In this document: positions 17,783 to 52,727 of the stretch, in pieces
Layout: each line of letters starts with the position of its first letter
How positions within the stretch are numbered: the first letter of the stretch is position 1
Assembly: GCA_038105035.1 (NCBI GenBank)
Contig: JAYOBT010000005.1
Span: 12,676-76,675 of the forward strand
Direction of reading: 5' to 3'
Source of the DNA: Candidatus Poseidoniales archaeon
GTDB lineage: Archaea > Thermoplasmatota > Poseidoniia > Poseidoniales > Poseidoniaceae
Length of the DNA stretch: 64,000 nt
Translations under genes and position numbers: made by a program
Notes under the pieces: model-generated
Database searches by the model: none
The model's input: the letters and a program-made list of their open reading frames with translations, nothing else
Told to the model about the DNA's origin: nothing

Positions 17783-18739
17783 TCAAGATTTCAACATGGT
17801 GACGAGTTTTGCCGTCATCGCATCCAACTGAATCTTCTCGCCACCCCCCTCAACAAGACGATAATCGACCTCTGCCATGATTTCAGTGAGGTCCAACTTG
17901 TCCATTTCTGAAATGAAATCGACGTTGTACAATTCTCGATGAAGTTGCCCAACAAAATCAGTGCCTGCGAGACCGTATTTGTTCAGAAGTTCCTGAAGAC
18001 GTCGTCGAGCAACGTGAAAACCATCGTCTTTGCATGCCATGATGTATTGATGAAGGGCCTCTGGCGGAGCGGTGGCAGACGTTTCGTAGACGATGGATCG
18101 AGTGATGGTTTCGCTGATGGCTGCAGACACCTGCAAAGCGGTGATGGCTCGCCGCAAGTCACCCTGTGCAATTTTTGCTAAGGCTTCCGCAGCATCGTCA
18201 TCGAGGATGACCTTCTCTTCGCTTGCAACGTGCTTGACTTGGTCAAGAACTTCCGAATCTGCAAGTGGACGAAACCGGAACACTGCACAGCGCGATTGGA
18301 TTGGCTCAATAACTTTGGAAGAATAGTTGCACGAAAGGATGAATCGGCACGTCTCAGCGTATTGTTCCATGATTCGACGTAGGGCGCCTTGAGCGTCGTT
18401 TGTCAAAGCATCGGACTCATCGAGAAAAATGATCTTGAATTTCGCATCGCCATAGGGCTGGGTTCGGGCAAACTGTTTGACTTTCGATCGTATTTTATCC
18501 AACCCTCGTTCGTCCGAGGCGTTCATTTCCAGAAGATTGTCACGATAATGCTCGCCAAAGACGTCTTTCGTTAGAGCCATTGCTGCTGTGGTTTTTCCTG
18601 TTCCGGGCGGTCCTGCAAACAGCAGGTGTGGGAATTCTTTGTGTTCTGCATAGACCGATAAACGACTGACAACAGAGGCTTGTCCTCGAATTTCACCTAC
18701 ACTTTGTGGGCGATGTCGTTCGACCCAAAGTTCGCTCAT
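17783..18739 (-). CDS. rfcS: replication factor C small subunit
   Basis: MSELWVERHRPQSVGEIRGQ, Walker A GPPGTGKTT, LDESD and the SRC motif IQSRCAVFRF. Start set at ATG 18739; the track start at 18772 adds 11 non-conserved residues. Confidence 0.9.
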   Translation of the reverse strand: MSELWVERHRPQSVGEIRGQASVVSRLSVYAEHKEFPHLLFAGPPGTGKTTAAMALTKDVFGEHYRDNLLEMNASDERGLDKIRSKVKQFARTQPYGDAKFKIIFLDESDALTNDAQGALRRIMEQYAETCRFILSCNYSSKVIEPIQSRCAVFRFRPLADSEVLDQVKHVASEEKVILDDDAAEALAKIAQGDLRRAITALQVSAAISETITRSIVYETSATAPPEALHQYIMACKDDGFHVARRRLQELLNKYGLAGTDFVGQLHRELYNVDFISEMDKLDLTEIMAEVDYRLVEGGGEKIQLDAMTAKLVTMLKS

Positions 18740-18801
18740 GAACACCAGAGAATGGCGAGCATCTTTCAACATTCGGTTTGAATTTTTTCGAGCCGGAATC
18801 T

Positions 18802-18821
18802 CGCCCCCCTATAGGGGGGCG
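18802..18821. promoter_or_regulatory. perfect 20-bp palindrome with a TATA core in a divergent intergenic region
   Basis: CGCCCCCC-TATA-GGGGGGCG lies between rfcS (start 18739, minus strand) and the giant surface gene (start 18870, plus strand). Confidence 0.4.
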
Positions 18822-18869
18822 TGCGCCGAATCAGTCATAACCTTCCACACCTTAGGTCGAACGAGCGCC

Positions 18870-21800
18870 ATGAGAAACAGCACCACAAATCGAAATGTCT
18901 TCACAGCAGTGACTCTCATCCTGATGTTCCTTTTTGCCGACGTCTTTGTCCCATCTGCCTTCCCTGCACCAGAGGTGCTAGAAGAAGAACCGACGGTTCA
19001 GCATGTCATTTCAACCATCAGCCCAACACTCGACACCTACATTGATTCCGATAATCCAAACGACGATTATGCGGGCGAAGATACGGGTCTCCTCGGAGTT
19101 TCTGGAACGAGCGATGCGCGCCTCCTTCTCTCGTTCCCGCTCAACTTTGCATCAACGGACACCATCCATTCTGCTCGTTTGGATCTTGTCTGTTCGAATA
19201 CTGGTGCGACCAATGGTCTTGCGGTCTACCCTGCCTCAACGAGCGTCACTTGGGATGAAAACGCAACGTGGAATTCTCGCGATGGGATGCTCATGTGGGG
19301 TGAACCTGGTGCGGATGATGGTACGGACCGTTCCGACTGGGAGCCGCCCATCGTTACTTCACCGCTGGGTCCTTCTGGTGGGTCCTCAAACGTGCAACTC
19401 AACGTGACTGCACTCGCTCAAAGTGCGGTTGCATCCAGCGCATCTGCTCTTGAAATTCTAGTTTCCGCTCTTGGTTCACAATACGATTGTGCCATGAATG
19501 AAACGCTCAATATCCCTGACCGACCAAGCCTTCGAGTGGATTCCTCGACGGCGACAGCAGGATCAGGGGGGACCATTGCACCGAATTTTGTCGATGATGG
19601 TGCTCCGCTTATGTCTGACGACTTCTACCTCACTGCTGATTTGACACCGAGCATGACATGGGATTCCTACTCGGGAATTTTCGCAGAAGTTCAGCTCTCG
19701 ATGGATGATGGGTTCAAGAGCGATGAAGACAATTACAACTGGTTGTACAACACCGATGCCCACGCATCGAGTTTCACTGTATCAGGGACCACGGGTGCTT
19801 TGGATATTCCATCATCCGATGCTTTCGACAATGGGACATTTATGCATTACAGAATGCGGGCAATGGACTCGACAGGCACCTTGAGTTCGTGGGAGCAAGG
19901 CTCGTTCTTCCTGCCAACGCATGACGTTACGGCCAACAACGATGGTACAGCTTCGATTGCAGTTGATGTCAACGATCTTGCTGATGACGTGGATTTCATT
20001 GAGGACACGTATGTCGACGAGGACAACAAAAACGACAACTTCGGCACTGTTTCAACGCTGGTAACGCAAGTGACTTCCACTCGTGAAACCATTTCCCACC
20101 TACGAGTCAACTTCGATCGATTGGGATTGCATACGAACGCAACCATCATCGAAGCTTCTCTGAATCTGACTCGCTCAACTTCGAGTGGCTCAGCAACACT
20201 CGCTCTGCACGAAATGGATACAGTTGACGTTTGGTCTGAGGGCGATGCAACATGGCGCCGCCCGACAAGCAACCAACTCTGGGATGATGGTGGTCGAGAG
20301 TACCTCGGCTATGCAACCGAATCTGGTGTGATGGGGTCGCAAACCAGCGATGACTTTTCGTTTGATTTGACAAGTATGCTTCAACAGTACCTCGACAATA
20401 GCGGTCCGGATTCCCTTGACTTTGCTCTAACTGCTCGCTCGCAAAATGGTGCGTATGCGGCCAACAATGGCGTTGATTCAGTGACGTTCCACTCCTCAGA
20501 CGCATTCAATGAGGGTGACAAGCCGCAATTGTACATCAAGTATGACTGGTCTTCTCCAGTCACAGTCGCTCCCTCGCTCACATCGCCATGGGATGGTGAA
20601 ACCTTGTGGAACCAAACAGGTCACAACTTCACCGGCAACACAACGCCAACGCTCACTTGGGCATCTTCTACCTCCTCATCCTACGACATGATCTTCGAAC
20701 TTTCTACCGATTCCTTGTTCCACGATCGAATTGCACGCATCGACACCCGAACAGATACGGAATTCGCTCCGAGCGATGGTGAAGTCAGTTTCACCGGTCT
20801 TGATAGTCTCGAAGCAGGGCACATGTACAACTGGCGTATGCTTCATGTCGATTCCAACAATCGTCATGGAGAGTGGTCCTACTCTTCATTCCTCATCAGT
20901 GCCATGAACTCAACATGGCTTGGTGGTGATCGATACGAATTCCGATTAAAGCAAGGAAACGCGAGTTCTGACGGTCTTCATCCAGCGTGTGCAGACACCT
21001 ACATCGATTCGGGTATGCCTAGTTCAAATTACGGTTCTGAGACCGAATTGCAAGTTTCGTACAACACCATTCCTTCAGAAACAACAGTTCTGTTTGGTTG
21101 TGATCTTTCCACCACCTTCCTGCCGTCTGGGTACGCTGTTGAATCTGCAAATCTTGAACTGTACCTCAGTGATTTCCCATTTGGAACACCCGTCGTTGGT
21201 GCTTGGGAAAACACCCAGCATGGATGGACTGAGGACGGCGCCACGTGGGCGACATACGACGGAACAAACACATGGAACTCGGTCGGTGCGAAAGGAAACG
21301 AGCGTTCCTCGCTTCTTGACTCAGTGAGCATTGGATCTGGATTTACCTCAAGTTCTTCTGCCAACTGGAACGTGACCTTGGCCGTTCAAAATGCCATGCG
21401 TAACAATCACTCTGCTGATTTCATTCTCGGAATCATTGGAGCAGGCAGCGGTCAAATCCGCGACGTTCTGTTCCATACAGGTGCAGCCATCGATGCCAAG
21501 CGTCCAGAGCTTTCCTTCGTCTACGTACCCGGTTCGAATGCCATTCCAATTGAGCCCGTTCCAGTTCTCCCGTTGAACGGAAGTTGGAGCGTTGCCGATG
21601 GAGTCAATCCTGAACCAATTTATCGGCCTCTCATGAACTGGACACACTCAACGGGCGTTGGAGTCAGCGGCTATGCTGTCCAAATGGATACAGTCAATAC
21701 CTTCGACAGCAGTGCCATGAGCATCGAAACATCGTGGTCAAATTCAGGTTTCGATCTAACCAACAACTCGTTTACACCAACGTCTGACCTCGATGATGGC

Positions 21801-24800
21801 AAGACATGGTATTGGCGAGTACGTGCGATTTCTTCCACCAACCAACTCGGAAATTGGTCCGAAACATTCCACTTCAATCTCCCTTCTTTGGTCACGTGGA
21901 ACCTATCATCGACCACTGCTGCTGTTGAAATCCGTCACCATGAAGCCATGCCTGAACTACAACTTCCACACTTCATTGACACCTGGCTTGCCGAAGATGG
22001 CATCGAGGGCCAACAAAACCATTCGGCCTCAACTTCGCTTAAGGTTGGTGAGTTAGGTAGTGGACATCATGCTTCTGCGCTTCTGAAAATTCCTCTGAAC
22101 CAGCTGCCAACACCAAGCAATGCCCGTGTGACCAATGCTGAACTCACCATGTGGGCGCAGTCAGGTTCCGATACCAACGTGCAGGTTGCCGTTCGGCCAG
22201 TCCTTCAAACATGGACTACAGCCCTCAACAATTCCACCTACGATGGCACGAACAACTGGTCTGCCGATGGTGCTCGAGGCATTGGAACAGACGTCGGTTC
22301 ACTGAGCGACCTCAGCGCATCAGCATCGGCAGATTGGATGGATTGGGACGTGACCGAACTTGTGCAAGCAGCGCTTGCCAACGGTGATTCCTATCTCTCC
22401 ATCGCTTTGATGACCAGTGATGCCTCAGACGCTCTGATAACCTTCACAAGTACGGAAGGAGCGTCCAACCAGCGACCTTGGCTCAATCTTACATGGACGG
22501 ACGGAACTGCAACAATTCCAACCGTTGCTGCAAGCAATGCACTTCCAGTGGATGGAGACATGGCTTGGGATTTGAGCACACACGTTCCTGAACCTTCGAC
22601 CCGGCCTGTGATGACATGGACGCACTCCAATGCAGCAAACATCGATGATTGGAAGGTCTTCATCCAAAACGATCCAACCGACATTATGCTAGGGTTCTCA
22701 ATCTACGATTCTCGAACCGATACAGCCATGTTTGACTTGCAGAGCCTTTCATTCCAACCAGCAAATGACCTCGCGACCAACCAAAGCATTCGATGGTTTG
22801 TTCAACCAGTCAACGATGAAATGCTCGGTCCACGTTCGACCAGTTCCGTCTTCCACATCCCACACGACATTGGAAATCAAATCAACAGTACTTGGGGTTA
22901 CATCAACGTCTCCGAAGGAGGCTTCTTGCCAGACCTCAATGAACCGTCAGGATTTGTGACAGATACAACACTCGATTCAGCTGCATCAAACGCGAATCTC
23001 TACAATTCGGGAACCATCAGTGTTGGACGATCATCATACAGTTCTGGATCATCACAACGTTCCTCAACCATCGTTTCCGTTGATTTAACCAAGTTGCCAA
23101 TCAATGGTACGTACGAAATCATGAGTGCTTACTTCACGTTGAGTACGAAGTCGAGCAGTTACGGCGAAGTGTGGTGGAGTGGATCTGTACTCAACACCGC
23201 CTTTGATGGTGATGCGAACTGGAACAATGCCACCAATTCAACGCAGTGGAATTCCCCCGGTGCATACCATTCATCCGACACGGATATCCCGTGGGGCGGA
23301 GCAGGATTGATTGACTCATCGAACGCAACACATCGCGGAAACATTACACCCATGCTTCAACAAGCAGTTGCGAACGGTCTGACAACGTTTGACTTCCTTA
23401 TTCAAGCCGAGGAAAACAACAGCAATGTTGACGGCCGACTGGACTTCTATTCAAGCGATGAAGCGAGTACGGCACTACGTCCTTCTTTGAACATCACGTA
23501 TCGGATGACCAACGCATACATTGATGCTAGCCCAACTGGACTACTGCCAGTTGATGCAACAACCGTTTGGAACTACTCTTCCCCAAGACCATCTGGCGCC
23601 GACCACGTAAACCTGTCATGGACACCACCATCAAACAATGAAACTGGGTTCTACATGTGCTTCGCTTCAGATGCACGTATGATTTACGACCTCAATTGTG
23701 CATCTGTAAACACATCTTCTGGATTCACCGATGGAAATTACACTTGGGATCCAACAAACTCCACATTCACGATCAGAAACCCTACTTCGGCAGATAATTG
23801 GATTTATTGGCGTGTGTTCTCCTTCCAAGAAGTTACCCAAGAGAAATATTACCGGCAAGGTGAGTGGTCGCAAGTCAACACATACCGAGTTCCAGACGAT
23901 CAAGGCTACGACGATGGTGCGGGCAATCACACCGTCAACCTCTCAAGCGGTTCCATCTTCTCCAACACAGGACTGTTACCAGCAGCTCCGGATACGCACA
24001 CCGTTTCTTCTGCATTGAACACAAACTACGGTGGTAGTACGACGCTGAAATTAGGTGCGAGTTCATCCGGCGACCATGAGATCTTCATCGAATTTGATCT
24101 CTCGCAGATGCCATGGCCAAATGCCATGACGCCGACCTCGACCATGCTTCGATTGTATCGAACGCAAGTTGCTGGTATCTCGCCACTGACAGTGAGCGCT
24201 CACGCTTGTTCGACGTTCACGGAATCGAGTGTAACTGCACTTCAACCGCCTTCATGCAGTGCTACAGAAATCACACGGTCGACGCTTTCTGTTACACCTC
24301 CATCTGGATGGCTTGAGTGGGACATTACCTCACTTGCACAATCGAACATAGCGAACGGTAACCAAACCATGACCATCCAACTCAAAGCAGTTGGTTCAGG
24401 AAGCAGTCTGCACACGTTTGCCTCTGGTGAATACGCAACAGAATCTCTGCGTCCAACGCTCCGAATCGATTATGTTGACAACGTTGCTGGTGTTGTTCCA
24501 CCAGCACAACCAGTCTTGCTTTCACCGCTTGATGGTGCTGTGCTGTACGATACGACCAACAACCTCCTAGATTCGCTCGACAAACCAGTTCTCAACTGGA
24601 ACACTGTTTCTGGAGCCACGGGCTACATTGTCACAATCCGTAACGAGTCAGGCCAGTACACCTTCAAATCTGCAACCTCGAGCCAGATTACTGGAACAAG
24701 CTTCACCTTTGCCAACACCGTTGCACCAGGTTCCACCTTTGAGTGGTGGGTCCAAGCGGTCAATGGATCGATTCCAGGACCATCGTCCTCACGATGGGTT

Positions 24801-27800
24801 GTTGGAGTTGGTGACCCACAAACCATGGACAACAACGACCATACATGGACCTATGAGTTCCAAACTGGGAACGAGATTGAAGAACTTGCACACACCAATG
24901 TCCAAGATGTCTCAATCTTCAGTGGCCTGATTGATACAAACCTCGATGGAGACGCCAACGTGATTGGCATCGATGCTGCACAAGACGAATACCGCTTACT
25001 TGTCGATGTCGATTTCGGGCAAATACCGTTTAATCCAAGCATGAACGTTCATGATGTAACCTACAGCATGTATCTCGAAGATTTGAAATTCGGCAGTGGT
25101 GCCACCGGTATGACGCTCTCAGTCCATCGTGTTTTGACCACTGGTTGGTCAGAGACCTCTGCAACATGGAACGGCACGGGTAGCGCTTCTTGGGGTGCTC
25201 AAGGTATGCAGGCTGGAGTTGATTATGATTCCACACCGCTCGATTCCGTCTTCATCAGCAATTCGCAAGTTACGGACACCTGGATTTTCTTTAATTTAGG
25301 GCACAGAATGCTCTACATCGATGGCACACATAGCTGGGTCATTATCGGCACACCGACGCAAGGTTGGATGGAATTGGACTTCAGCGATAACAGCGATGAA
25401 ACGTCCTCAAAGCGTCCCCTTTTGATGATGAATTACACCGATATTGATTCGATTACCATCTCGCCAACTGCTACCTCAACGGATGCTGATTCAACCGTTC
25501 AGTTCAGTGCCTCCACATTTGATTACAATTCTTTGGTTGCGAGTGTTCCCGTTGTTTGGTCGACAAGCAGCGGCAGCATCGACTCGACAGGATTGTTCAC
25601 GCCAACAGCAGTCGGCACCCATACTGTGACTGCATGTTTCGGAGTCATCTGTGAAGATGAAACAGTCACGGTGACACCCGGTGCCCCAGTCGACTTGGTT
25701 GTTACACCTTTGACGGCAACAATTACGACGGATGAAACGCTTGAATTGACTGCAGATGTGGTGGATCAACACGGTAACGCTGTGCCTGGTCAGAGCATCA
25801 CGTTCACGCCGAGCAACGGAACCATGGGTGGCACGTTTGGTGATGTCTTCCAACCTTACGCCGTTGGTGGGCAGACCGTTACTGTCACTTGGCAAACAGA
25901 CTCTATTGTTGTCAACATTCTGGTCGAGTTAGGAGCGCCAACGACCATCGAATTGACAGGATGCGACGGCGTCGTTCCTGCAGGTACTGAATGCGAAGTC
26001 ACAACCACGCTTTACGACCAATTTGGAAACGTCATCCCGCTCACCGAAGCAGGTGCACTCTCCTACTCAGTCAACGATGGATTCTACAGTGAAGCAACGA
26101 GCATGTATTTCGCTGACACCGTAGGCACATGGCAACTCTCTATCACATCGGCAATCGGTCTATCCGATTCGATCACTGTTCAAACAGGTCATGGTCAGAT
26201 GGCTTCTCTGGAAATTGTCCCATCGGTTTGGGACATCACGGCGGACGAAGTTGTCTTCCTCAACACGACCAGAATCGATGTTCAAGGCAACCGGTTGCCT
26301 GTGAACTTGCCACTTGCAAACTGGACTTCCATCGATGATGGCGCACTCAACATCACTCTGGACCATCCAGTCCAGTGGATTCCAAACGGCCTCGGTGCTC
26401 GAGTGATTTCAGCACAGTATGAAACCACGTTTGCATCGATAACGATCAACGTCTCCAAGGGTGTCATGGTCGATATGGTGCTTATCGTTGATTCAAACGA
26501 TGCAGACGACCAAACGTTCGGTATTACTGCTGATGAAACGCTTGTTGTCAAGGCCAAAGCAAGCGATGGAAAAGGCAACCGCTGGACCATCGATGTCAAC
26601 TGGACCGTTGCTCACCCAGACTGGAGCGAACAATCTGTGTTGCTGTATCCATTGTCCGATGAGACCGAATTTATGCCTGTCTTGGCCTCTTCAACTGCCT
26701 ATGTCATTCGTGCTGAATACACGTATGATGGCCAACTGTTCAGCGAGATTGTGAACGTTGAAGTTTCGGAAGGCATCATCCAAGTCTTCACAATGAACAC
26801 GATTGCTTCCAATGGAGACACTGGATCGGTCTACAACATCAGTGCCGACCATTCGATTGATTTCTCTGTCGCTCTTAGTGACGGCGATTTGAACCCGCTC
26901 AGTGTTGATGTCCTGACATGGCTGTTCGAGGATACAGATTCTGGAACTGTCACCGATATCACAACCGACTTCGTCGCCGATGGCTATCAATGGGAAGCGA
27001 CAACTGTAGGAAACTATCGATTGTTGGCTTATGTTGAGAATGCTGATGGATTCAACTACACACGTTCCGTTGACATCTCAGTATACCACGGAATCGCCGT
27101 ATCGCTCGACCATGAACTCAACACGTTTGATGAGGATGCAGGTGAATCGATTGATATCACCATTACTGGTACAGACAGCGATGGAAACACCTTCCCACAA
27201 GATGTCGAATGGGAAGAGGATGGTTCCTTGTCAGATCGTGTGATTCCAGGCGATGATCCTGGTACTTACATCTACCAAGCATCTGCTGCTGGAGACCACG
27301 TCATGGTATATTCAACCCCGAGTGCTTCAAACACATTCGACCTGAAGATTTCACCCCAGATGATTGTCGATTTCATCGAAGTTGAGCTGTCCGCCGTCAC
27401 GGTTGAGCAACAGGCTTCCATCGAGGTAACGGTTCAAGCGTTTGATCGATTTGCCAACCCGATTCCAGTTCCGAGCAGTGCTCGTGTTGACGCAACTGGA
27501 CGCGGTACGGCCGAAAGTACTGGCCAGGGCACATGGAAGGTGACAACCTTGGACAGTGGTCCTCAAATCATCACAGTATCCGCAGGTCAAGTTAGTGAAG
27601 ATTTCAATATTGAAGTCACAGGCACACTCGGTGGATTCTTTGCAGCAGGTGGAACATTGTATTACATCGGGGCAGTGTTGATTGGACTCATCGTTGCCGT
27701 GCTTGTTGGCCTCCTCGTTATGGCCTTGCGCTCAGGTCGAGGTGATGACGATTGGGACGACGACTATGATGACGATGAGGATGACGAACCACGCTCCTCT

Positions 27801-28037
27801 CCTGGTCCGTCTGGACCAGCACCCGGTCCATCTGGCCCAGCACCTGGTCCAAGTGGTCCGGCTCCGGGTACAGGTCCGTCAGGATCACCACCACAGGAAG
27901 AGGAAGAGAAGGAAGACACCAGTTGGATGGTTGACCACCGAACCGATGACGATGGTACTGAGTGGGCTCAAAGCGAAGATGAGACGTGGTACTACCGAGA
28001 ACCTGGACAGAGTGATTGGGTCGAGTGGCAGGATTAG
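18870..28037 (+). CDS. giant (3,055-aa) secreted, C-terminally TM-anchored surface protein: repeated DTYxD/NYG beta-sandwich plus FN3-like modules, an Ig-like array and an acidic Pro/Trp-rich tail
   Basis: An uninterrupted ORF. Start set at ATG 18870, which gives the signal peptide MRNSTTNRNVFTAVTLILMFLFADVFVPSAFP. TM helix at about 27631-27733; stop at 28035-28037. Confidence 0.85.
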   Translation: MRNSTTNRNVFTAVTLILMFLFADVFVPSAFPAPEVLEEEPTVQHVISTISPTLDTYIDSDNPNDDYAGEDTGLLGVSGTSDARLLLSFPLNFASTDTIHSARLDLVCSNTGATNGLAVYPASTSVTWDENATWNSRDGMLMWGEPGADDGTDRSDWEPPIVTSPLGPSGGSSNVQLNVTALAQSAVASSASALEILVSALGSQYDCAMNETLNIPDRPSLRVDSSTATAGSGGTIAPNFVDDGAPLMSDDFYLTADLTPSMTWDSYSGIFAEVQLSMDDGFKSDEDNYNWLYNTDAHASSFTVSGTTGALDIPSSDAFDNGTFMHYRMRAMDSTGTLSSWEQGSFFLPTHDVTANNDGTASIAVDVNDLADDVDFIEDTYVDEDNKNDNFGTVSTLVTQVTSTRETISHLRVNFDRLGLHTNATIIEASLNLTRSTSSGSATLALHEMDTVDVWSEGDATWRRPTSNQLWDDGGREYLGYATESGVMGSQTSDDFSFDLTSMLQQYLDNSGPDSLDFALTARSQNGAYAANNGVDSVTFHSSDAFNEGDKPQLYIKYDWSSPVTVAPSLTSPWDGETLWNQTGHNFTGNTTPTLTWASSTSSSYDMIFELSTDSLFHDRIARIDTRTDTEFAPSDGEVSFTGLDSLEAGHMYNWRMLHVDSNNRHGEWSYSSFLISAMNSTWLGGDRYEFRLKQGNASSDGLHPACADTYIDSGMPSSNYGSETELQVSYNTIPSETTVLFGCDLSTTFLPSGYAVESANLELYLSDFPFGTPVVGAWENTQHGWTEDGATWATYDGTNTWNSVGAKGNERSSLLDSVSIGSGFTSSSSANWNVTLAVQNAMRNNHSADFILGIIGAGSGQIRDVLFHTGAAIDAKRPELSFVYVPGSNAIPIEPVPVLPLNGSWSVADGVNPEPIYRPLMNWTHSTGVGVSGYAVQMDTVNTFDSSAMSIETSWSNSGFDLTNNSFTPTSDLDDGKTWYWRVRAISSTNQLGNWSETFHFNLPSLVTWNLSSTTAAVEIRHHEAMPELQLPHFIDTWLAEDGIEGQQNHSASTSLKVGELGSGHHASALLKIPLNQLPTPSNARVTNAELTMWAQSGSDTNVQVAVRPVLQTWTTALNNSTYDGTNNWSADGARGIGTDVGSLSDLSASASADWMDWDVTELVQAALANGDSYLSIALMTSDASDALITFTSTEGASNQRPWLNLTWTDGTATIPTVAASNALPVDGDMAWDLSTHVPEPSTRPVMTWTHSNAANIDDWKVFIQNDPTDIMLGFSIYDSRTDTAMFDLQSLSFQPANDLATNQSIRWFVQPVNDEMLGPRSTSSVFHIPHDIGNQINSTWGYINVSEGGFLPDLNEPSGFVTDTTLDSAASNANLYNSGTISVGRSSYSSGSSQRSSTIVSVDLTKLPINGTYEIMSAYFTLSTKSSSYGEVWWSGSVLNTAFDGDANWNNATNSTQWNSPGAYHSSDTDIPWGGAGLIDSSNATHRGNITPMLQQAVANGLTTFDFLIQAEENNSNVDGRLDFYSSDEASTALRPSLNITYRMTNAYIDASPTGLLPVDATTVWNYSSPRPSGADHVNLSWTPPSNNETGFYMCFASDARMIYDLNCASVNTSSGFTDGNYTWDPTNSTFTIRNPTSADNWIYWRVFSFQEVTQEKYYRQGEWSQVNTYRVPDDQGYDDGAGNHTVNLSSGSIFSNTGLLPAAPDTHTVSSALNTNYGGSTTLKLGASSSGDHEIFIEFDLSQMPWPNAMTPTSTMLRLYRTQVAGISPLTVSAHACSTFTESSVTALQPPSCSATEITRSTLSVTPPSGWLEWDITSLAQSNIANGNQTMTIQLKAVGSGSSLHTFASGEYATESLRPTLRIDYVDNVAGVVPPAQPVLLSPLDGAVLYDTTNNLLDSLDKPVLNWNTVSGATGYIVTIRNESGQYTFKSATSSQITGTSFTFANTVAPGSTFEWWVQAVNGSIPGPSSSRWVVGVGDPQTMDNNDHTWTYEFQTGNEIEELAHTNVQDVSIFSGLIDTNLDGDANVIGIDAAQDEYRLLVDVDFGQIPFNPSMNVHDVTYSMYLEDLKFGSGATGMTLSVHRVLTTGWSETSATWNGTGSASWGAQGMQAGVDYDSTPLDSVFISNSQVTDTWIFFNLGHRMLYIDGTHSWVIIGTPTQGWMELDFSDNSDETSSKRPLLMMNYTDIDSITISPTATSTDADSTVQFSASTFDYNSLVASVPVVWSTSSGSIDSTGLFTPTAVGTHTVTACFGVICEDETVTVTPGAPVDLVVTPLTATITTDETLELTADVVDQHGNAVPGQSITFTPSNGTMGGTFGDVFQPYAVGGQTVTVTWQTDSIVVNILVELGAPTTIELTGCDGVVPAGTECEVTTTLYDQFGNVIPLTEAGALSYSVNDGFYSEATSMYFADTVGTWQLSITSAIGLSDSITVQTGHGQMASLEIVPSVWDITADEVVFLNTTRIDVQGNRLPVNLPLANWTSIDDGALNITLDHPVQWIPNGLGARVISAQYETTFASITINVSKGVMVDMVLIVDSNDADDQTFGITADETLVVKAKASDGKGNRWTIDVNWTVAHPDWSEQSVLLYPLSDETEFMPVLASSTAYVIRAEYTYDGQLFSEIVNVEVSEGIIQVFTMNTIASNGDTGSVYNISADHSIDFSVALSDGDLNPLSVDVLTWLFEDTDSGTVTDITTDFVADGYQWEATTVGNYRLLAYVENADGFNYTRSVDISVYHGIAVSLDHELNTFDEDAGESIDITITGTDSDGNTFPQDVEWEEDGSLSDRVIPGDDPGTYIYQASAAGDHVMVYSTPSASNTFDLKISPQMIVDFIEVELSAVTVEQQASIEVTVQAFDRFANPIPVPSSARVDATGRGTAESTGQGTWKVTTLDSGPQIITVSAGQVSEDFNIEVTGTLGGFFAAGGTLYYIGAVLIGLIVAVLVGLLVMALRSGRGDDDWDDDYDDDEDDEPRSSPGPSGPAPGPSGPAPGPSGPAPGTGPSGSPPQEEEEKEDTSWMVDHRTDDDGTEWAQSEDETWYYREPGQSDWVEWQD
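19014..25440 (+). repeat. protein-level super-repeat (six full units and one half unit, period ~0.94-1.03 kb)
   Basis: The module-initiating D-T-x codons sit at 19032, 20004, 20994, 21978, 22962, 23991 and 24933. The copies have diverged, so this is not a nucleotide-identical repeat. Confidence 0.6.
27801..27863 (+). repeat. 3 x 21-nt imperfect tandem repeat encoding (PGPSGPA)x3
   Basis: cctggtccgtctggaccagca / cccggtccatctggcccagca / cctggtccaagtggtccggct, followed by a degenerate fourth unit. Confidence 0.8.
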
Positions 28038-28045
28038 GTGATCAC

Positions 28046-30640
28046 ATGAATCAGCAACGGACTGCACTCTTTTTGTGTAGCCTAATGCTCATTTCAGTCG
28101 TCGCAACACTCCCAGCAGCAGCGGGAGGGCCTCCTGCACAGATTGTGATTTCAACGCCATCTACCGTTATTTCATCCGATGGTGTCTTGCAGATGGAGGC
28201 CACATTGTATGACGCCCTGAACAATGTTGTCGATGGTGAAATCACGTGGTCTGCAACAAATGGAACCATCGAAGATAGCGGTTTGTTCTTCCCTTGGTCA
28301 GCGGGCCAAGTGACCATTCGGGCTGAGCATGCAGGGTTCAATGACACTGTTGTAGTCACCGTCCAAGCTGGCTTTGGTCAATCCATTGCCATCAACACAT
28401 CCGCTCATCCTCGGGCAAAATTCCCGTTCACCTTGCAAGCAAATCTCATCGATTCGCATGACAACCCCCGGCCGGGACAAGATGTTGTTTGGACCGTCGA
28501 TGGCCTCTATGTTGGACAAGGCGAACCGTCTTGGACGCCCCCTTCACTTGGTTTGTATGAAGTGGTTGCTCGATACGATCAGTTGGAACAGCGCGTGACC
28601 ATGGAAGCCATTGCTGGTGATCCTTACGAGTTCTCTTTCCCATCTGATTTGGTTCTACGAAGTGGTGAAGGCATGCAACTTTACCCTGATTTGCTCGATT
28701 CCTTTGGTCAAAAGATGAACAACACGCTCGCTGGGAACAAGGCTTGGACGGTCGAAAATGGAACGATTACACCTGTTGGCTACTATTATGCCTCAGCCCC
28801 TGGCATCTGGAATCTTTCCGTGCGTGCTGGCTCGGTTTGGGGCAACAGCACCATTCGAGTGGTTCCTGCTGATGCATCCATCGTCGAGATTCAGATTACG
28901 CCTGAAGCAGAAACCTATGTTTCCGGAGAAGTCTATCGCCTCGATGCCATTCGCACAGATTCGCAAGGTTACTCTTCCCCAGTTCCGGTTCCTATTGGAA
29001 ATTGGACCGTAGGCAATGGTATTCTGTCACAAGCCGATGATGAAGTGCATTGGACACCCGGACAAGCCGGAGAATTCACCTTGCACGTCGTTGATTCAGA
29101 TGTCCCAGCAACCATGAACGTCGACGTGATGCATGGTTCTGCTGATGCTACACGCTTGGTTCCAAGCCAATCAAGTGTAACAGCAGGAACGCAACTCGTT
29201 TTGGTGCATGAAGCCATCGACTCCTTCGGAAATGTGTGGCAGGTCGATGCCAATATCTCACAAACTGAGGGCGTTCACGCGGGTGTTGACATCTTCTCGT
29301 CGTATGTTTCCGTGATGCCAAAGGAAATGGAAACCATTGGCTTCACTGCCGACTACATCGACACAAACTCAGGTGCAATGTTCCAATCCGTTTGGTCGAA
29401 AGATGTTGAACCAGGCCGCCTCGCCTTCATTGAATTGCCCGAGTCAGGCACAGAAGTTGCAGCAGATTCTTATCTGGATTTCGACCCAGAATTCACCGAT
29501 GCATACGGGAACAGCATTCCCTATGTGGCTGTTAATTGGACCATATCTGGTGCGGACCGGACCCTCGAAATTCGGATGGCAGATGGGAAATGGTACCCAA
29601 CCCAAACCGGTGAGCACGAAGTTCGTGCCAATGCGGATGGTGTCTTTGCGTCAGTTCGCATTAACGTGGTTCCTGGGTCTGGGACTTCCTTGGTATCCGA
29701 TAGTGACGATGGCTTAACCATCGAAGCGGGCGTCCCATTCGATTTGTTTGTCGAACTAGTTGATGTCCATGGGAACACCGCTCCAGCAGAAAACGTCGAA
29801 CTGATGAGCGGTGAGTATGTTGTCTTGGAGGCTTCCTCAAGTGGCCGTGGTTTCTGGCAACTCACCGGACTTACCAGTGGATTCTACGAACTCGACATTG
29901 CAGAAGGTGAAGCAGAACATTCCATTCCACTTACCATTGTTCCAGGTCAACCCGTCCGAGTCATCACCGGCATGAGCAACGAAACCAGAAGCCAAGGTGA
30001 AGTGACACTCATCACCATATGGGCTGAAGATTCTCAAGGAAATCGAGTTGAAGTCAATCCAGATCAAACCTCGCTTTCCTGTACCTCTGGCAAGGCAACA
30101 CACGTCAAATCGGACACTTGGGAAATTGAACTCGAAGAGGCGGGCGCTGATCGTTCTTGCACAGTTACATGGAATGGATTGATTTCGCAACAATTCTATG
30201 ATGTTGAATCGGTTCTTCTCGGCGGCGCACTGGGTTCAACGAACATGGCCGTGTCGATCATTATCGCTCTAATGCTGCTTATTTTCGTCGTTCTTGTTGT
30301 CCTAATTCGCCGTGGGATTTCAAAAGATGAAGAGTGGGATGAAGAAGAATTCTACGAAGTTTCTGAAGATGATGAAGAACGTTTGGTTGAAAGTGATGAC
30401 GATGCAGTCGAGATGGACGTTCAGGCACCTACGGAAGCACGTGTGGTCGAAGCAACCAATGCGGAACCTGCGCTCGAAGGTACTCTGCGCCAAGAATTGG
30501 CAACAAAAGCAGGCCAGGTCGGTGTTATGCAAGCCGCTCCCGGCACGCAGCAAGGTGAAACAGGATGGTATGTTGATGCGAGCACTGAACTGCAATACTG
30601 GAATGTCGGTCCTGATGGATCTTGGACTCGCGTTCAATGA
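28046..30640 (+). CDS. secreted, C-terminally TM-anchored protein made of Ig-like (Big_2-like) repeats with an acidic Trp-motif tail
   Basis: Signal MNQQRTALFLCSLMLISVVATLPAAAGG, with GGTGA 6 nt upstream of ATG 28046. About eight ~85-aa repeats of the type V.V.P......G..L....A...D..GN. TM helix AVSIIIALMLLIFVVLVVLI. Confidence 0.8.
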   Translation: MNQQRTALFLCSLMLISVVATLPAAAGGPPAQIVISTPSTVISSDGVLQMEATLYDALNNVVDGEITWSATNGTIEDSGLFFPWSAGQVTIRAEHAGFNDTVVVTVQAGFGQSIAINTSAHPRAKFPFTLQANLIDSHDNPRPGQDVVWTVDGLYVGQGEPSWTPPSLGLYEVVARYDQLEQRVTMEAIAGDPYEFSFPSDLVLRSGEGMQLYPDLLDSFGQKMNNTLAGNKAWTVENGTITPVGYYYASAPGIWNLSVRAGSVWGNSTIRVVPADASIVEIQITPEAETYVSGEVYRLDAIRTDSQGYSSPVPVPIGNWTVGNGILSQADDEVHWTPGQAGEFTLHVVDSDVPATMNVDVMHGSADATRLVPSQSSVTAGTQLVLVHEAIDSFGNVWQVDANISQTEGVHAGVDIFSSYVSVMPKEMETIGFTADYIDTNSGAMFQSVWSKDVEPGRLAFIELPESGTEVAADSYLDFDPEFTDAYGNSIPYVAVNWTISGADRTLEIRMADGKWYPTQTGEHEVRANADGVFASVRINVVPGSGTSLVSDSDDGLTIEAGVPFDLFVELVDVHGNTAPAENVELMSGEYVVLEASSSGRGFWQLTGLTSGFYELDIAEGEAEHSIPLTIVPGQPVRVITGMSNETRSQGEVTLITIWAEDSQGNRVEVNPDQTSLSCTSGKATHVKSDTWEIELEEAGADRSCTVTWNGLISQQFYDVESVLLGGALGSTNMAVSIIIALMLLIFVVLVVLIRRGISKDEEWDEEEFYEVSEDDEERLVESDDDAVEMDVQAPTEARVVEATNAEPALEGTLRQELATKAGQVGVMQAAPGTQQGETGWYVDASTELQYWNVGPDGSWTRVQ

Positions 30641-32631
30641 CGGTCAGTGATCTCATGGGTGTAGAAGAACATCGAAACTGGGACGATGTTGATTATTCCA
30701 AATTGATGAGTGGGCAAGCATTCCCAAGCAATTTCATGTGGGGTGTAGCTACAGCCTCGCACCAAATTGAGGGTGGAAACTCCAACAATTGGACTCGATT
30801 TGAACCCGGTTCGAAAAGCGGCCAAGAGAGCGGTGATGCCTGCGATCACTGGAACCGCAAAGAGCAAGATGTTCAACTCATCAAAGACTTGAATGTCACG
30901 CACTACAGGTTTTCACTCGAATGGAGCCGTATCGAACCTGAGATGGGTACTTGGAATCAAGATGCCATCGATTGGTACAGCGACCTTGTCGATCAACTTC
31001 TTTACAACGGAATCCAGCCCATGGTCACACTCCATCACTTTACAAATCCACTCTGGTGGGAAGACATGGGCGCGTTTGAAGATGAAGCAAACATACTCTA
31101 TTGGATTCGATTTTGCTCCAAGATGTTTGAAGTGCTAAGTGACCGAGTTGAGTGGTGGTGCACCATCAATGAACCTGCTGTTTATGCTTCAATGGGGTAT
31201 GTATTGGGGGAATTTCCCCCTGGTGAGCGTTCCTTCAAGAAAACACGAGTGGTTTCATTGAACCTGATGCGAGCGCATGCTCGATGCTATCGGACGCTCA
31301 AGTCAATGGAGAATGGAGCGTCAAGAAAGATTGGATTGGTGAAGAACATCAACATCTTTGATGCGTATCGGCGCTGGAATCCATTGCATCGTTTCCAAGC
31401 AAAGCTCTTGGATGGGATGTTCAACCGATGTTGGATTGATGGTCTGAAAACCGGCCGTTTCAAGCCACCCTCAGCATTCAGGAGCGTTTCTATTGATGGC
31501 CTCAAAGGGAGCAGCGATTTCATCGGCGTGAATTACTACACGCATCTACTCACAACACCATTCATGCCGACCAAGGTTGAGATCGACCCACTCATCCGAC
31601 CTTGGGAGGAACGAACAGATTTCCGCTATCCCATGTATGCTGAAGGGTTGAAGCGTGCATTTGAGATGGTCGCCCCATTGAACATACCAATCATCGTGAC
31701 CGAAAACGGGGTTGCTGATGATGATGATGACATGCGCCCCGAGCATGTCCGGAGACATTTGCAAATCACTGCGGAAGCCATTGGCGATGGTCATGATATC
31801 CGGGGATTCTACCATTGGAGTTTGATGGACAATTTCGAATGGGCCGAGGGATATGAACAGTGTTTTGGATTGTACCATGTTGATTTTGAAACCCAACAAC
31901 GAACGCTTCGTGAGAGTGGGAAGTTGTATGCGGGTATTGCTCAATCGCATCGAATGCCACAAGTGGTTATCCTTGCAGGTGGGCTTGGCACCAGACTTGG
32001 TGACTTGACCAAAAACCAACCAAAGTCATTGATTGAAGTCGCAGGTCAACCTATCTTGGCCCATATCCTCGACTGGGTCAAAGAGCAAGGCTGCAATCGT
32101 GTACTCGTTTTAACAGGACATCATGGTGAACAATTCGAAGGGTTCCATTATCCGGGTATCGACATGACCTTTGTCCAAGAACAGGAGCAATTAGGTACTG
32201 GAGGTGCACTTTGGAACGCTCGTGATTACTTGGAAGAGGAATTCATATTGTTGTGGGGTGACGATTACCACCCAATTCAATATGCGCCATTGATTCATCG
32301 CCATCGAGCAGCAAACTCGACGTTGACCATGACCGTGACAACCGAACATCAAGACAAGAACCTGCACTATGCTGATGGTCGATTGGTTGATTATGGTAAG
32401 CATGACGATGTCCCAGAGGAATTCAATGGATACGAAGCAGGAACGTCCATTGTGAAGAAATCGGTGATCGATGAACACGGTAAAGAGGGCAAGTGGTCAT
32501 GGGAAAAGACGGTATATCCAACCATGTCGAACAACATCCATGTCCATCTTGACAACACAAAATTTTGGGACATGGGGACGCCAGAACGCCTCGAACGCTT
32601 AGAGGAATTCTTCAACGAATCCAGGTCGTGA
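30637..32631 (+). CDS. fusion protein: GH1 beta-glycosidase (N-terminal ~440 aa) plus sugar-1-phosphate nucleotidyltransferase (C-terminal ~230 aa)
   Basis: GH1 motifs: FPSNFMWGVATASHQIEGG, acid/base TINEP (about 31167) and nucleophile VTENG (about 31698). From about 31954 the sequence reads MPQVVILAGGLGTRLGDLTKNQPKSLIEVAG...LGTGGAL...WGDD, a nucleotidyltransferase. The ATG at 30637 overlaps the upstream stop (ATGA). Confidence 0.8.
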   Translation: MTVSDLMGVEEHRNWDDVDYSKLMSGQAFPSNFMWGVATASHQIEGGNSNNWTRFEPGSKSGQESGDACDHWNRKEQDVQLIKDLNVTHYRFSLEWSRIEPEMGTWNQDAIDWYSDLVDQLLYNGIQPMVTLHHFTNPLWWEDMGAFEDEANILYWIRFCSKMFEVLSDRVEWWCTINEPAVYASMGYVLGEFPPGERSFKKTRVVSLNLMRAHARCYRTLKSMENGASRKIGLVKNINIFDAYRRWNPLHRFQAKLLDGMFNRCWIDGLKTGRFKPPSAFRSVSIDGLKGSSDFIGVNYYTHLLTTPFMPTKVEIDPLIRPWEERTDFRYPMYAEGLKRAFEMVAPLNIPIIVTENGVADDDDDMRPEHVRRHLQITAEAIGDGHDIRGFYHWSLMDNFEWAEGYEQCFGLYHVDFETQQRTLRESGKLYAGIAQSHRMPQVVILAGGLGTRLGDLTKNQPKSLIEVAGQPILAHILDWVKEQGCNRVLVLTGHHGEQFEGFHYPGIDMTFVQEQEQLGTGGALWNARDYLEEEFILLWGDDYHPIQYAPLIHRHRAANSTLTMTVTTEHQDKNLHYADGRLVDYGKHDDVPEEFNGYEAGTSIVKKSVIDEHGKEGKWSWEKTVYPTMSNNIHVHLDNTKFWDMGTPERLERLEEFFNESRS

Positions 32632-33432
32632 TGAAACGATAACTTCGTGTTCTGGAAGAACCGATTCGTTCTCAACAAGAACGAGAATCATGCCGCCGAA
32701 ACCACCACCCATCATTCGAGCGCCATGTACGCCATCAATGGATTGTAGGGATTCGACAAGAGCGTCAACTTTGGTTGTACTCACGCCGATTGTTTTCAAT
32801 GATTCGTGTGTTGCATTGAGAAGTTTTCCTAGCGCTTCCTTGTTGGAATCCAACGCTTCTTCGACACGACGATTCTCGGATTCTATGTGATTTCGCTTTG
32901 TCAATTCATTCGAAGTATTCCGATAATCTTCAGAATTCAAAGATCGATGAAGTCCTGAATCAACGAGTTTGAAGATCCAGTCAGGTGGTAGTGCGATCGT
33001 TGTTGAGGTCTTCGTTGAGAAGTCGATGAGGACGCAATGCTCCTCAAGAGAATGCATCATCGTCATTTGATCGAGCAAGCCACAAGGTGTTCCAAGTACA
33101 ACATGCTCCAGTCTTTGTGCTTCTTCACATGCGTCTTGTTTGCTAATGCTGTCTCCATGAACGCACAGAACTACACTCAAGCACAGTGCGGCAGATGAAG
33201 ACATGCCTTTCCCAATTGGAATCGTGCTTGATACCTCCAACTGGGCGGGAGGTCCTCCTGCTTCTCTCCACAATGCCACCACCTCTGGGTCACCGCTGAA
33301 TCCACTTTCAAGAAATTCAGCTTCAAGCACAAGCCGATGTTGGGATGCGAATGCAAGCGAAAGCCCACCCGCATAATCGGTGTGCTCGCCAATGATGTTG
33401 ATTCGACCGGGGATGGATGCACGCCGTTTCAT
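32599..33432 (-). CDS. GHMP-family sugar kinase, short galactokinase-like
   Basis: Galactokinase signature GRINIIGEHTDYAGG, GHMP ATP motif PIGKGMSSSAAL and motif III GARMMGGGFGGMILVL. It is only 277 aa. Confidence 0.75.
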   Translation of the reverse strand: MKRRASIPGRINIIGEHTDYAGGLSLAFASQHRLVLEAEFLESGFSGDPEVVALWREAGGPPAQLEVSSTIPIGKGMSSSAALCLSVVLCVHGDSISKQDACEEAQRLEHVVLGTPCGLLDQMTMMHSLEEHCVLIDFSTKTSTTIALPPDWIFKLVDSGLHRSLNSEDYRNTSNELTKRNHIESENRRVEEALDSNKEALGKLLNATHESLKTIGVSTTKVDALVESLQSIDGVHGARMMGGGFGGMILVLVENESVLPEHEVIVSSRPGFVEEFL

Positions 33433-34400
33433 GCAAGCACATCCTCAGTTCTGTCGAGGTCGAACCAGACGGGATAGTGATCAGATACATCCGAGTCGCT
33501 CATGTCCCTATCGACGCCCCAACGTCCGAAGAATCGGTCCTCAATATCGCTTGTTAGGACAATCCGATCGTAGGCACAATGTGTGTTTTCTGAGAAGGTT
33601 GTATCCGCAGAGTCCGGTACGACCCAGAGATATTCTGGGCTTCGAATCTCAAGTTGATTCAATTCATAGGTCGAAGCATAACTGCAATCTGCATTGAAAT
33701 CACCAAGAAGGATGATGTCGGATTCGGTTGAATTTTGTTTGAATGTTTCAACGACATGATGCAGAGCAGCCGTTTCATTAACCGCATTGGCAGGTTTGGT
33801 ATGTACTGTGATGAATGTCATATCTTCGAGCACTGTTCCATTTTGTGAGAGGAGTTTGAACGATGAAATGTACGGTTCCCTTTGAAATTCATCCAACTCT
33901 GAATCGTTGTGTAACCAGGCAGAATCCAACTGGAAATACGATGTTCGATAGTAGAATGCATACTGTTCTTGTCCTCCCTGGTCGTCTTCTTGTTGCCCAG
34001 AACGTTCACTCAAGGCCATAGCATAGGTTTCATTTGATGCTGAATTGATGGCATCAAGGAAGTCGTAAGGGACGGTCTGATCAAGATCTTTGATTTCTTG
34101 AACGACCACCATATCATAACGTAGGGTAATGTTGACAAGTTCCGAAACAACATCCGCTTTGCTCATTTTCGTCTCACCAAAGACTTTGATGTTGAAGGTT
34201 GCAATTCGTGCAACATCTTCGCGACTTCGTGACTCAGCGCGTGCTTCAGCATCTTCATCTTCTTCTCCCTCAACTTCAACGTAGACGGTTTTCCACAGTG
34301 GGCTTTCATCTTGGTGGACCAAAAGTTGGATGGTCATTGGAAAGAGTACCAACAAGGCTACGAGCATAACGCCTTGCAACGCGTTGTCATGCCGTGCCAT
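33429..34400 (-). CDS. membrane-anchored DNase I-family (EEP) nuclease
   Basis: N-terminal TM helix VMLVALLVLFPMTIQLLV. DNase I blocks follow: IATFNIKVFGETKMSK, VVQEIKD, TVHTKP, LLGDFNADCSY, VPDSADTT, CAYDRIV, SDHYPVWFDL. Confidence 0.85.
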   Translation of the reverse strand: MARHDNALQGVMLVALLVLFPMTIQLLVHQDESPLWKTVYVEVEGEEDEDAEARAESRSREDVARIATFNIKVFGETKMSKADVVSELVNITLRYDMVVVQEIKDLDQTVPYDFLDAINSASNETYAMALSERSGQQEDDQGGQEQYAFYYRTSYFQLDSAWLHNDSELDEFQREPYISSFKLLSQNGTVLEDMTFITVHTKPANAVNETAALHHVVETFKQNSTESDIILLGDFNADCSYASTYELNQLEIRSPEYLWVVPDSADTTFSENTHCAYDRIVLTSDIEDRFFGRWGVDRDMSDSDVSDHYPVWFDLDRTEDVLA

Positions 34401-40044: not shown

Positions 40045-40550
40045 AAATAGATGAATGCGAGTACACTGCCGCCAAAGGCACCAACGTTGACGGCCATGCC
40101 GTGCCAAAGCCCATATCTGAACGGTGGGAACTCAAATTGAAGCCAAAAGGAACTGATGAACAACCAAGCAATTGCAGGTAGAAATCCAGCAAGATAGACC
40201 GATGAGGATCCGAACATCCAAACCATGGAAAGGCAACATGCTGTGACTGCGAAACCCATAGCATACTCACCTGCACGGCTCATTTCCATACCAATGAGTA
40301 GTCTGTAAATTAGTGGTGAAACAACGAGGTAGATGGCGAACGCGCCATGCACAGGATTTGGAACGAATGTATCGATACGAGGCATCACCGTGAGTTGCCA
40401 AATTGCACCAAGGACCATGCCAATCAGCAATGGAGCCATCATATGGCGAAGCATATCTGAGAAGATTTCGCTTCCCGTAACCGCTTCATCATGAGCGACA
40501 TCTGCCGGCAAATCATCGGATGTTGTAACAACATCATCTGCCTCCGACAT
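40041..40550 (-). CDS. membrane protein (hypothetical)
   Basis: 169 aa with an acidic N-terminus and about five hydrophobic helices. I did not recognise a family. Confidence 0.45.
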
Positions 40551-40607
40551 GCTGTGGGCTTAGCCCCTTCTCGTTTGAGGTTTAGCCTTCCGTTGCGATG
40601 CATCCAT

Positions 40608-41528: not shown

Positions 41529-41530
41529 TT

Positions 41531-52631: not shown

Positions 52632-52717
52632 GGTTGCGGGAATCCGTTTTCGTCATCAGTCTTTTGCCAAAATAATGAAAAAAATTGAATAAAATTGTCC
52701 AGACGACAACAGAGTAG

Positions 52718-52727
52718 CATTATATAT
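52718..52727 (+). promoter_or_regulatory. candidate TATA box (leaderless-type spacing) for the 52748 gene
   Basis: CATTATATAT in an AT-rich spacer, centred about 25 nt upstream of the ATG. Confidence 0.4.

Follow-up and report, generated by a model that had tools for sequence, protein, structure and literature searches.

A glycoside hydrolase family 1-nucleotidyltransferase fusion and a linked galactokinase-like kinase in Poseidoniales: a predicted sugar-salvage module

Introduction

In a 64,000-nucleotide stretch of DNA from Candidatus Poseidoniales archaeon (GenBank assembly GCA_038105035.1, contig JAYOBT010000005.1, positions 12,676 to 76,675 of the forward strand; hereafter the window, the positions of which are used throughout), a single open reading frame (ORF) joins a glycoside hydrolase family 1 (GH1) beta-glycosidase to a sugar-1-phosphate nucleotidyltransferase (NTase), and a gene for a galactokinase-like GHMP kinase lies directly downstream of it in convergent orientation. 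We consider it probable that three enzymes encoded at this locus form a sugar-salvage module of Poseidoniales (marine group II, MGII), by which a beta-glycoside would be turned into a free sugar, then into a sugar-1-phosphate, and finally into a nucleoside diphosphate sugar (NDP-sugar). MGII archaea are among the most abundant archaea of the surface ocean, but they are uncultured, and next to nothing is known of how they metabolise carbohydrates. A GH1 enzyme has been described as the only glycoside hydrolase of MGIIa metagenome-assembled genomes (MAGs) and was read as a polysaccharide-processing beta-glucosidase, with no mention of a fused domain (PMC6864105). Proteins with the fusion are public under the names 'beta-glucosidase', 'glycosyl hydrolase family protein' and 'hypothetical', and the kinase is public as 'galactokinase'. 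Our literature searches found no paper on the GH1-NTase fusion, on the module or on an MGII galactokinase, in agreement with the original prediction for this DNA, made from its letters and ORF translations, which had regarded the combination of GH1 and NTase as undescribed.

Results

The fusion gene and its two domains

The fusion gene extends from 30637 to 32631 on the forward strand. It encodes 664 amino acids and ends in a TGA stop codon (32629-32631), and an alternative TTG start at 30622 would lengthen the product to 669 amino acids. The original prediction of one 664-residue ORF containing both enzymes was borne out, as the frame is free of internal stops and frame changes and the product matches both Pfam domains with scores far above chance level. 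Residues 27-439 (30715..31953, forward strand) form the GH1 domain and residues 440-664 (31954..32628, forward strand) the NTase domain of 225 residues, with no linker between them. The motif positions given earlier likewise agreed with ours (TINEP, nucleotides 31162-31176; VTENG, nucleotides 31696-31710; Met440, nucleotide 31954). Met440 is followed by PQVVILAGGLGTRLGDLTKNQPKSLIEVAG (PQVVILAGGLGTRLG... in a longer readout). The N-terminus of the window protein is hydrophilic, with neither a signal peptide nor a transmembrane (TM) segment. An AlphaFold2 (AF2) model built with 141 sequences reached a mean predicted local distance difference test (pLDDT) score of 88 and a whole-chain predicted TM-score (pTM) of 0.88; this high two-domain pTM suggests a fixed mutual orientation of the two domains. 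A Foldseek search of the Protein Data Bank (PDB) found no chain spanning both of them (TM-score normalised to the query of at most 0.58).

The GH1 half matches Glyco_hydro_1 (PF00232) nearly end to end, from position 3 to position 452 of the 453 in the profile, with an E value of 9.2e-91 and a score of 305 bits (cut-off 22.6). The predicted acid/base is Glu179 in TINEP (residues 176-180) and the predicted nucleophile Glu356 in VTENG (residues 354-358), and the glycone-binding Glu401 and Trp402 lie in DNFEW. The elements TINEP, TENG and DNFEW are invariant in 17 aligned fusions and occur in every complete fusion among 60 sequences of the GTDB set described below. The (beta/alpha)8 fold is supported by the AF2 model (pLDDT 88) and by Foldseek, for which the best PDB match is 1vff (TM-score 0.88) and the next 49 matches are all GH1 enzymes. 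As the protein scores 315 bits against a cut-off of 478.5 for the canonical beta-glucosidase equivalog (NCBIfam TIGR03356, BGL), its substrate specificity is not to be assumed. In GH1, by an established family rule, the glutamate of DNFEW marks enzymes for non-phosphorylated glycones; because this residue is kept, the glycone is probably non-phosphorylated.

The NTase half matches NTP_transferase (PF00483) from residue 443 onwards (E value 1.3e-17; score 64.7 bits, cut-off 21.2). Its closest solved structure is HddC (5xhw/6jq8), D-glycero-alpha-D-manno-heptose-1-phosphate guanylyltransferase, to which query residues 3-215 of 225 aligned with an E value of 2e-20. Such a nearly full-length alignment indicates that the domain is complete and no mere N-terminal remnant. 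The conserved elements GGLGTRL (448-454), Lys463, GTGGA (520-524), GDD (541-543), E600 and FWDMGTP (643-649) are invariant in our alignments A1 (fusions) and A2, and AGGLGTRL, K463, LGTGGA, WGDD and FWDMGTP are present in every complete GTDB fusion and invariant in the 17 aligned. Motifs of this kind are known in the family at large for their roles as pyrophosphorylase signature, as the conserved lysine and as acidic ligands of the metal and the sugar phosphate. The model has a pLDDT of about 90 across residues 440-660. All named NCBIfam families were matched below their cut-offs (man1P_GTase, 98 against 440; AglF, 83 against 400; HddC, 68 against 300; MurU, 62 against 250). The domain belongs to the HddC/GDP-mannose-pyrophosphorylase lineage, so that its nucleotide is possibly GTP.

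Selection on the three coding regions was estimated against L018 (locus labels of this form are our own), the closest relative with unsaturated synonymous divergence. The ratio of nonsynonymous to synonymous substitution rates (dN/dS) came to 0.036 (GH1), 0.077 (NTase) and 0.119 (kinase). The low values for GH1 and NTase indicate purifying selection, with neither half decaying.

Conservation of the fusion

We scanned GTDB, at one genome per species, with an alignment of the NTase domain as query. The scan gave 424 relatives, of which the best 80 loci were examined. All 80 belong to MGII MAGs, two of them under bacterial names and evidently mis-binned. GH1 and NTase are joined in frame in 59 loci, the NTase stands alone in 20 (232-265 codons), and one locus is cut by a contig end; the fusion is thus present in 59 of the 79 assessable Poseidoniales species representatives. 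It is also carried by the MG-II genome of 2012 (CM001443.1, L056). A search of 5.8 billion proteins recovered about 59 full-length PF00232 plus PF00483 clusters (at 90% identity), which share 62-89% identity with the window protein and derive from ENA, JGI, NCBI and Tara assemblies; those bearing a name are Poseidoniales or MGII euryarchaeota.

The need to exclude a frameshift or misassembly at the junction had been raised in the original prediction. That two ordinary adjacent genes were joined in this contig by a lost stop or a frameshift is an explanation to which we give practically no credence. It could draw on a related long-read contig, L005, in which two genes of 472 and 204 amino acids are called. 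However, this split is due to one extra A within the GGLGTRLG codons, and other genes of that contig are split too. In-frame fusions are found in 59 independent species representatives and across dozens of assemblies that rest on a variety of technologies. Stand-alone relatives of the GH1 half, moreover, are only about 52% identical to it and never lie beside an NTase. An artefact of sequencing or assembly was therefore rejected, the sole split case encountered being a 1-nucleotide insertion in an error-prone long-read contig.

Three observations on the related loci are worth recording. 'Pilon'-polished long-read contigs (L005:9330-9460, and also L001 and L010) carry split genes for aldehyde dehydrogenase, pyruvate dehydrogenase E1 and the fusion itself; the split of the fusion in L005 being a single-base indel, gene calls of such long-read assemblies need care. 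Two GTDB representative MAGs, the 'Rhodobiaceae bacterium' L017 (CALDQY010000023.1) and the 'Salipiger bermudensis' L024 (CAXQWT010000042.1), have contigs that hold the complete MGII string of surface-protein, fusion, kinase and Exo_endo_phos (EEP) genes at 74-94% identity, and it is almost certain that archaeal DNA was mis-binned here. Some fusion orthologues carry an additional membrane part at the N-terminus (L073:2159-4687; database proteins P0031, P0039 and P0037; L051, L061 and L063). It is a single TM helix in several of them, and in a few a multi-TM DoxX/MauE-like domain (PF07291) of about 120 amino acids, which makes a three-part protein.

The galactokinase-like kinase

Directly downstream of the fusion, and convergent to it, lies a gene for a 277-residue GHMP kinase (32599..33432, reverse strand) with GalKase_gal_bdg, GHMP_kinases_N and GHMP_kinases_C domains. 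The 3' ends of the two genes overlap by 33 nucleotides (32599-32631), and an overlap of 27-39 nucleotides recurs in most related loci, fused or unfused. Of the 80 GTDB loci, 76 have the kinase gene next to the NTase and convergent to it, with or without GH1. In two of the four exceptions the kinase is nearby without being adjacent; in the other two, of which one or both are cut at a contig end, no kinase was matched. The kinase stays beside the NTase where all other neighbours differ, and it is as faithful to the stand-alone NTase as to the fused one. The predicted sugar kinase and the NTase are thus genetically linked and co-inherited. The original prediction had proposed that the released sugar would be 1-phosphorylated and then activated; this proposal is strengthened by the conserved adjacent kinase, which had escaped the first reading.

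The galactokinase signature PF10509 was matched with a score of 39.5 against a cut-off of 23.1, and PF00288 and PF08544 also pass. The motifs GRINIIGEHTDY, PIGKGMSSSAA and GGGFGG are invariant among 54 family members. Residues R10, E16, H17, D19, G118, D121 and Y170 correspond to R37, E43, H44, D46, G183, D186 and Y236 of human GALK1, the galactose-contact and catalytic residues of that enzyme; in the same 54 members Y170 is at least 90% conserved and the other six are invariant. These pocket residues point to galactose, or a related sugar of galacto configuration, as the most likely substrate. In the PDB, the 50 structures nearest to the AF2 model of the kinase (pLDDT 91.7) are galactokinases without exception, with TM-scores of 0.8-0.87 normalised to the query and only about 0.6 normalised to the targets. 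The best NCBIfam matches are galactokinases as well, all below cut-off (TIGR00131, gal_kin, 115.7 against 226.65; PRK03817, the best, 154 against 443), and a fucokinase model matches only at an E value of 0.004. By sequence and model, the kinase is best described as a trimmed-down galactokinase-like enzyme.

The domain junction

The junction reads ...AQSHR-M-PQVVI... (31939..31971, forward strand). In the AF2 model the last GH1 helix (426-437) passes directly into the first NTase strand (442-446), with a pLDDT of 91-94 over residues 431-450. The methionine at 31954 had been proposed as the place where a stand-alone transferase would start, and this agrees with the stand-alone NTases, which begin at the position of Met440 or a few residues before it (A2 consensus xxxxxMPQVV). 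We therefore considered whether the ORF might yield both the full fusion and a free NTase initiated at Met440, in which case the fusion would mainly serve to co-transcribe two separate enzymes. The start sites of the stand-alone forms and the retention of the junction methionine in 44 of the 59 fusions speak for such dual expression. Nevertheless, the remaining 15 have a non-start codon at this position (ACC, ACG, ACT, ATT, ATA, GTT, TTA or TCG, encoding Thr, Ile, Val, Leu or Ser), and the database homologues P0024 and P0030 have Ala and Arg there. Direct reading of the 60 nucleotides before 31954 revealed no Shine-Dalgarno-like or A/T-rich box, and the junction is modelled as a rigid, high-confidence continuation of secondary structure. 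We hence regard dual expression, which the original prediction had offered as one option, as improbable; in view of the 15 exceptional fusions, it is not supported as a conserved feature. The junction methionine looks more like a relic of a former NTase start than a conserved internal initiation site.

Origin of the fusion

Stand-alone NTases are abundant in MGII; they are 57-65% identical to the C-terminal half of the fusion and are paired with the kinase. The nearest stand-alone GH1s (about 52% identity) have no NTase or kinase neighbour. In neighbour-joining (NJ) trees the fused GH1 domains were monophyletic with respect to the 41 closest stand-alone GH1s (30 of 30 bootstraps), and the fusion-type clade never occurred as a stand-alone protein among the 94 closest GH1 sequences. 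An NJ tree of the NTase domain alone left fused and unfused forms unseparated, and on concatenated NTase and kinase trees (200 bootstraps) the fused or unfused state required 2-5 changes, never 1. All of these are quick distance trees, and the count of changes is provisional.

Two candidate histories were rejected. A single gain on a clean phylogeny fitted none of the 200 bootstraps of the NTase and kinase trees. An origin from two long-neighbouring genes was not borne out (the original prediction had suggested fusion by loss of a stop codon or spacer), because the stand-alone GH1s lie apart from NTase and kinase and the stand-alone NTases already lie beside the kinase. This distribution implies that GH1 was inserted beside a pre-existing pair, and the simplest reading is that kinase and NTase form an older, MGII-wide unit. 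From the monophyly of the fused GH1 domains together with the 2-5 state changes, we infer one capture of GH1 upstream of the NTase, with fusion; GH1 was probably lost later, or the fused version transferred, in some lineages.

The NTase family is isolated. Among 1.84 billion representatives at 50% identity it comprises one fused and one stand-alone cluster, beyond which identity falls to 43% or less. Two outgroups that we examined (38% identity) sit in biosynthesis operons of the GDP-D-glycero-manno-heptose type. Beside the NTase, these operons encode a GHMP kinase that lacks the galactokinase signature, together with a SIS isomerase, a HAD phosphatase and glycosyltransferases, and they agree with HddC as the best solved match. 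When the NTase half was compared with its 150 best representatives at 50% identity, no fusion of a glycoside hydrolase to an NTase was found besides the MGII cluster, a scope that leaves room for an independent fusion in some distant NTase family. Other multidomain relatives were NTase-HAD, dehydroquinate synthase-NTase, epimerase-NTase, NTase-B12/radical SAM and tandem NTase proteins.

Gene neighbourhood and other features of the window

Two surface-protein genes precede the fusion. The gene at 28016..30640 (forward strand) encodes an Ig-like surface protein of 874 amino acids with a C-terminal TM segment and a weak Big_1 match, and its stop codon overlaps the ATG of the fusion (ATGA). Its synteny is kept in about 36 GTDB loci and is absent from the other fused loci. 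Upstream of it, a CBM96 surface protein of 3099 amino acids (18738..28037, forward strand) matches PF24517 with an E value of 5.6e-60 over 5 stretches. It contains five or more CBM96 modules and numerous N-x-S/T sequons, together with a C-terminal TM helix and an acidic tail of PGPSG repeats, and the same architecture occurs in L001, L002 and L005. The founding member of CBM96 binds alginate (PMC9971899). The CBM96 protein, the Ig-like protein and, as the third gene, the fusion form a string in the clade of the window (about 36 species). This surface-protein context is lineage-specific, and the universal module is the fusion and kinase pair alone.

On the far side of the kinase, an EEP family protein with a hydrophobic N-terminus is encoded at 33429-34400 (reverse strand). 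Its stop codon and the ATG of the kinase overlap by 4 nucleotides, an arrangement limited to the clade of the window (about 36 GTDB loci), and the two are probably co-translated. Further along the window, two adjacent genes for LigB-type extradiol dioxygenases (40491-42928, forward strand) include a second two-domain fusion, as the second of them encodes 465 amino acids with a C-terminal RidA/L-PSP domain. Two very large ORFs of 1328 and 1162 amino acids follow at 47856-56236 (forward strand); the former contains an NPCBM-associated NEW3 domain, and no Pfam match was found for the latter. The window also encodes the small subunit of DNA polymerase II, aRF1, GatD, RFC and LonB, which mark the DNA as archaeal.

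Discussion

In the sugar-salvage scheme that we favour, the cytoplasmic GH1 domain would cleave a beta-linked, non-phosphorylated glycoside to release a free monosaccharide, the separate, convergently encoded galactokinase-like GHMP kinase would phosphorylate this sugar at C1, and the NTase domain would join the sugar-1-phosphate with a nucleoside triphosphate (NTP) to give an NDP-sugar for glycosyltransferases. The chemistry is placed in the cytoplasm because the N-terminus of the fusion is hydrophilic and both later steps need ATP or another NTP. As to the nucleotide, the relatives of the NTase point weakly to GTP. What we infer from these data is the reaction order, which sugar and nucleotide are used, the role of the module in the cell and any physical channelling. 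As the fused activities would be the first and the third step, channelling would depend on docking of the kinase to the fusion protein.

Several points weigh against this scheme. Two non-consecutive activities are joined, so that fusion alone gives no channelling. The conserved module includes no glycoside transporter, and no signal peptide or TM segment was found in the window protein. GH1 enzymes usually act best on glucosides, for which no anomeric kinase is needed. The kinase, with 277 amino acids against about 350-390, is some 75-110 residues shorter than characterised galactokinases. Finally, all three enzyme activities are predictions, and all three proteins fall below the NCBIfam equivalog cut-offs, for which reason specificities are not transferable from the named families.

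A different use of the same enzymes would be catabolic entry of galactosides through a pyrophosphorylase-type bypass of the Leloir pathway. Here a galactoside would be converted to galactose, galactose-1-phosphate and NDP-galactose; an unlinked 4-epimerase would turn NDP-galactose into NDP-glucose, and the same NTase, running in reverse, would release glucose-1-phosphate to central metabolism. MGII archaea are heterotrophs in which GH1 is the only recognised glycoside hydrolase (PMC6864105). The galactokinase-like kinase would be the first Leloir enzyme, the NTase would replace GalT, for which the module has no similar gene, and in one unfused locus (L013) an NAD-dependent epimerase lies two genes away. 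Such an epimerase, however, is not part of the conserved pair, and neither GalE nor GalT was found among the window ORFs scanned. Furthermore, the nearest relatives of the NTase are of the biosynthetic HddC type and are found among glycosyltransferases, and many MGII genomes have the kinase and NTase pair without any GH1. We therefore think that catabolic entry is possible but unlikely. It is also conceivable that the two domains are functionally unrelated, GH1 being catabolic and NTase and kinase serving another glycan pathway, with the fusion a neutral accident kept by linkage. The non-consecutive steps would fit this idea, as would fusion or fission having apparently occurred more than once (2-5 state changes in the NTase and kinase trees). 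On the other hand, the fusion has been kept across lineages whose NTases share only about 60% identity, and strong purifying selection acts on both halves. The linker-free junction with its confidently predicted inter-domain geometry, and the fact that the GH1 clade of the fusion was never met as a stand-alone protein among its 94 closest sequences, argue in the same direction, and we regard a mere accident as very improbable.

A more specific version of the salvage scheme would place it at the inner face of the membrane. There, GH1 would be the entry point of a hydrolase-kinase-pyrophosphorylase assembly and no catabolic beta-glucosidase. It would remove the head group, beta-galactosyl or related, of an amphiphilic glycoside, candidate substrates being breakdown products of algal galactolipids or the cell's own glycolipids. 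The kinase would dock on the fusion, the sugar would pass straight into a GDP- or UDP-sugar, and this product would be used to glycosylate the giant sequon-rich surface proteins encoded beside the module. The idea derives from the membrane anchors of some orthologues, from the alkyl-glycosidase BGPh as nearest solved GH1, and from the translational coupling of the fusion gene to CBM96-bearing surface-protein genes in the clade of the window. BGPh, the anchors and the CBM96 context are weak hints of a substrate, and we hold this version to be speculative and unlikely.

What would be new in the salvage scheme is the extension of a known type of route, kinase/pyrophosphorylase salvage, by a fused glycosidase. 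The pyrophosphorylase fusion and the linkage to a kinase shift the reading of the MGII GH1 enzyme from a weak polysaccharide degrader towards sugar salvage for glycoconjugate synthesis. The proteins concerned are three, small and expressible, and their activities are directly testable. A natural glycosidase-pyrophosphorylase fusion is an unusual architecture for enzymology, and together with a minimal galactokinase of 277 amino acids it could serve a one-pot route from cheap beta-glycosides to nucleotide sugars.

Comparison with known systems

Fused kinase/pyrophosphorylases are known from the zebrafish glucuronokinase/UDP-GlcA pyrophosphorylase (GKUP) and the L-fucokinase/GDP-fucose pyrophosphorylase FKP (PMC3938481). 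As in these enzymes, an anomeric kinase of the GHMP family and a short NTase of bacterial type would convert free sugar into NDP-sugar by two successive reactions, and the kinase and NTase activities are genetically welded. In contrast to them, the MGII kinase is a separate, convergently encoded protein, and the NTase is fused to a glycoside hydrolase, which would act one step before the kinase. The MGII kinase is also galactokinase-like rather than a fucokinase or glucuronokinase. In plants and trypanosomatids, sugars are recycled by substrate-specific sugar-1-kinases followed by UDP-sugar pyrophosphorylase, USP (PMC3659416, PMC4002622). The proposed route resembles theirs in leading from glycoconjugate breakdown through free sugar and sugar-1-phosphate to NDP-sugar; it differs in that USP is a large eukaryote-type enzyme, unrelated in size to the 225-residue NTase, and in that the hydrolases are unlinked.

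The pairing of HddC with the GHMP kinase HddA offers a further parallel, as the closest non-MGII relatives of the NTase occur in heptose operons beside a GHMP kinase. However, the identity to these relatives is at most 38%, the module contains no GmhA or GmhB genes, and the MGII kinase, unlike those of the heptose operons, has the galactokinase signature. For the GH1 half, the closest solved enzyme is BGPh of Pyrococcus horikoshii (1vff; E 8e-89, 39% identity, TM-score 0.88), which is reported to associate with the membrane and to act on alkyl beta-glycosides (PMC8790579). Some fusion orthologues share with BGPh a membrane association in the form of N-terminal anchors, whereas the window protein has a non-hydrophobic N-terminus and, in contrast to the single-domain BGPh, is a fusion. 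With GalK and GALK1 of the Leloir pathway, finally, the MGII kinase has in common the fold, the three GHMP motifs and the conserved galactose-contact residues; it differs from them in being shorter, in scoring below the TIGR00131 cut-off, and in having as its partner an NTase in place of GalT.

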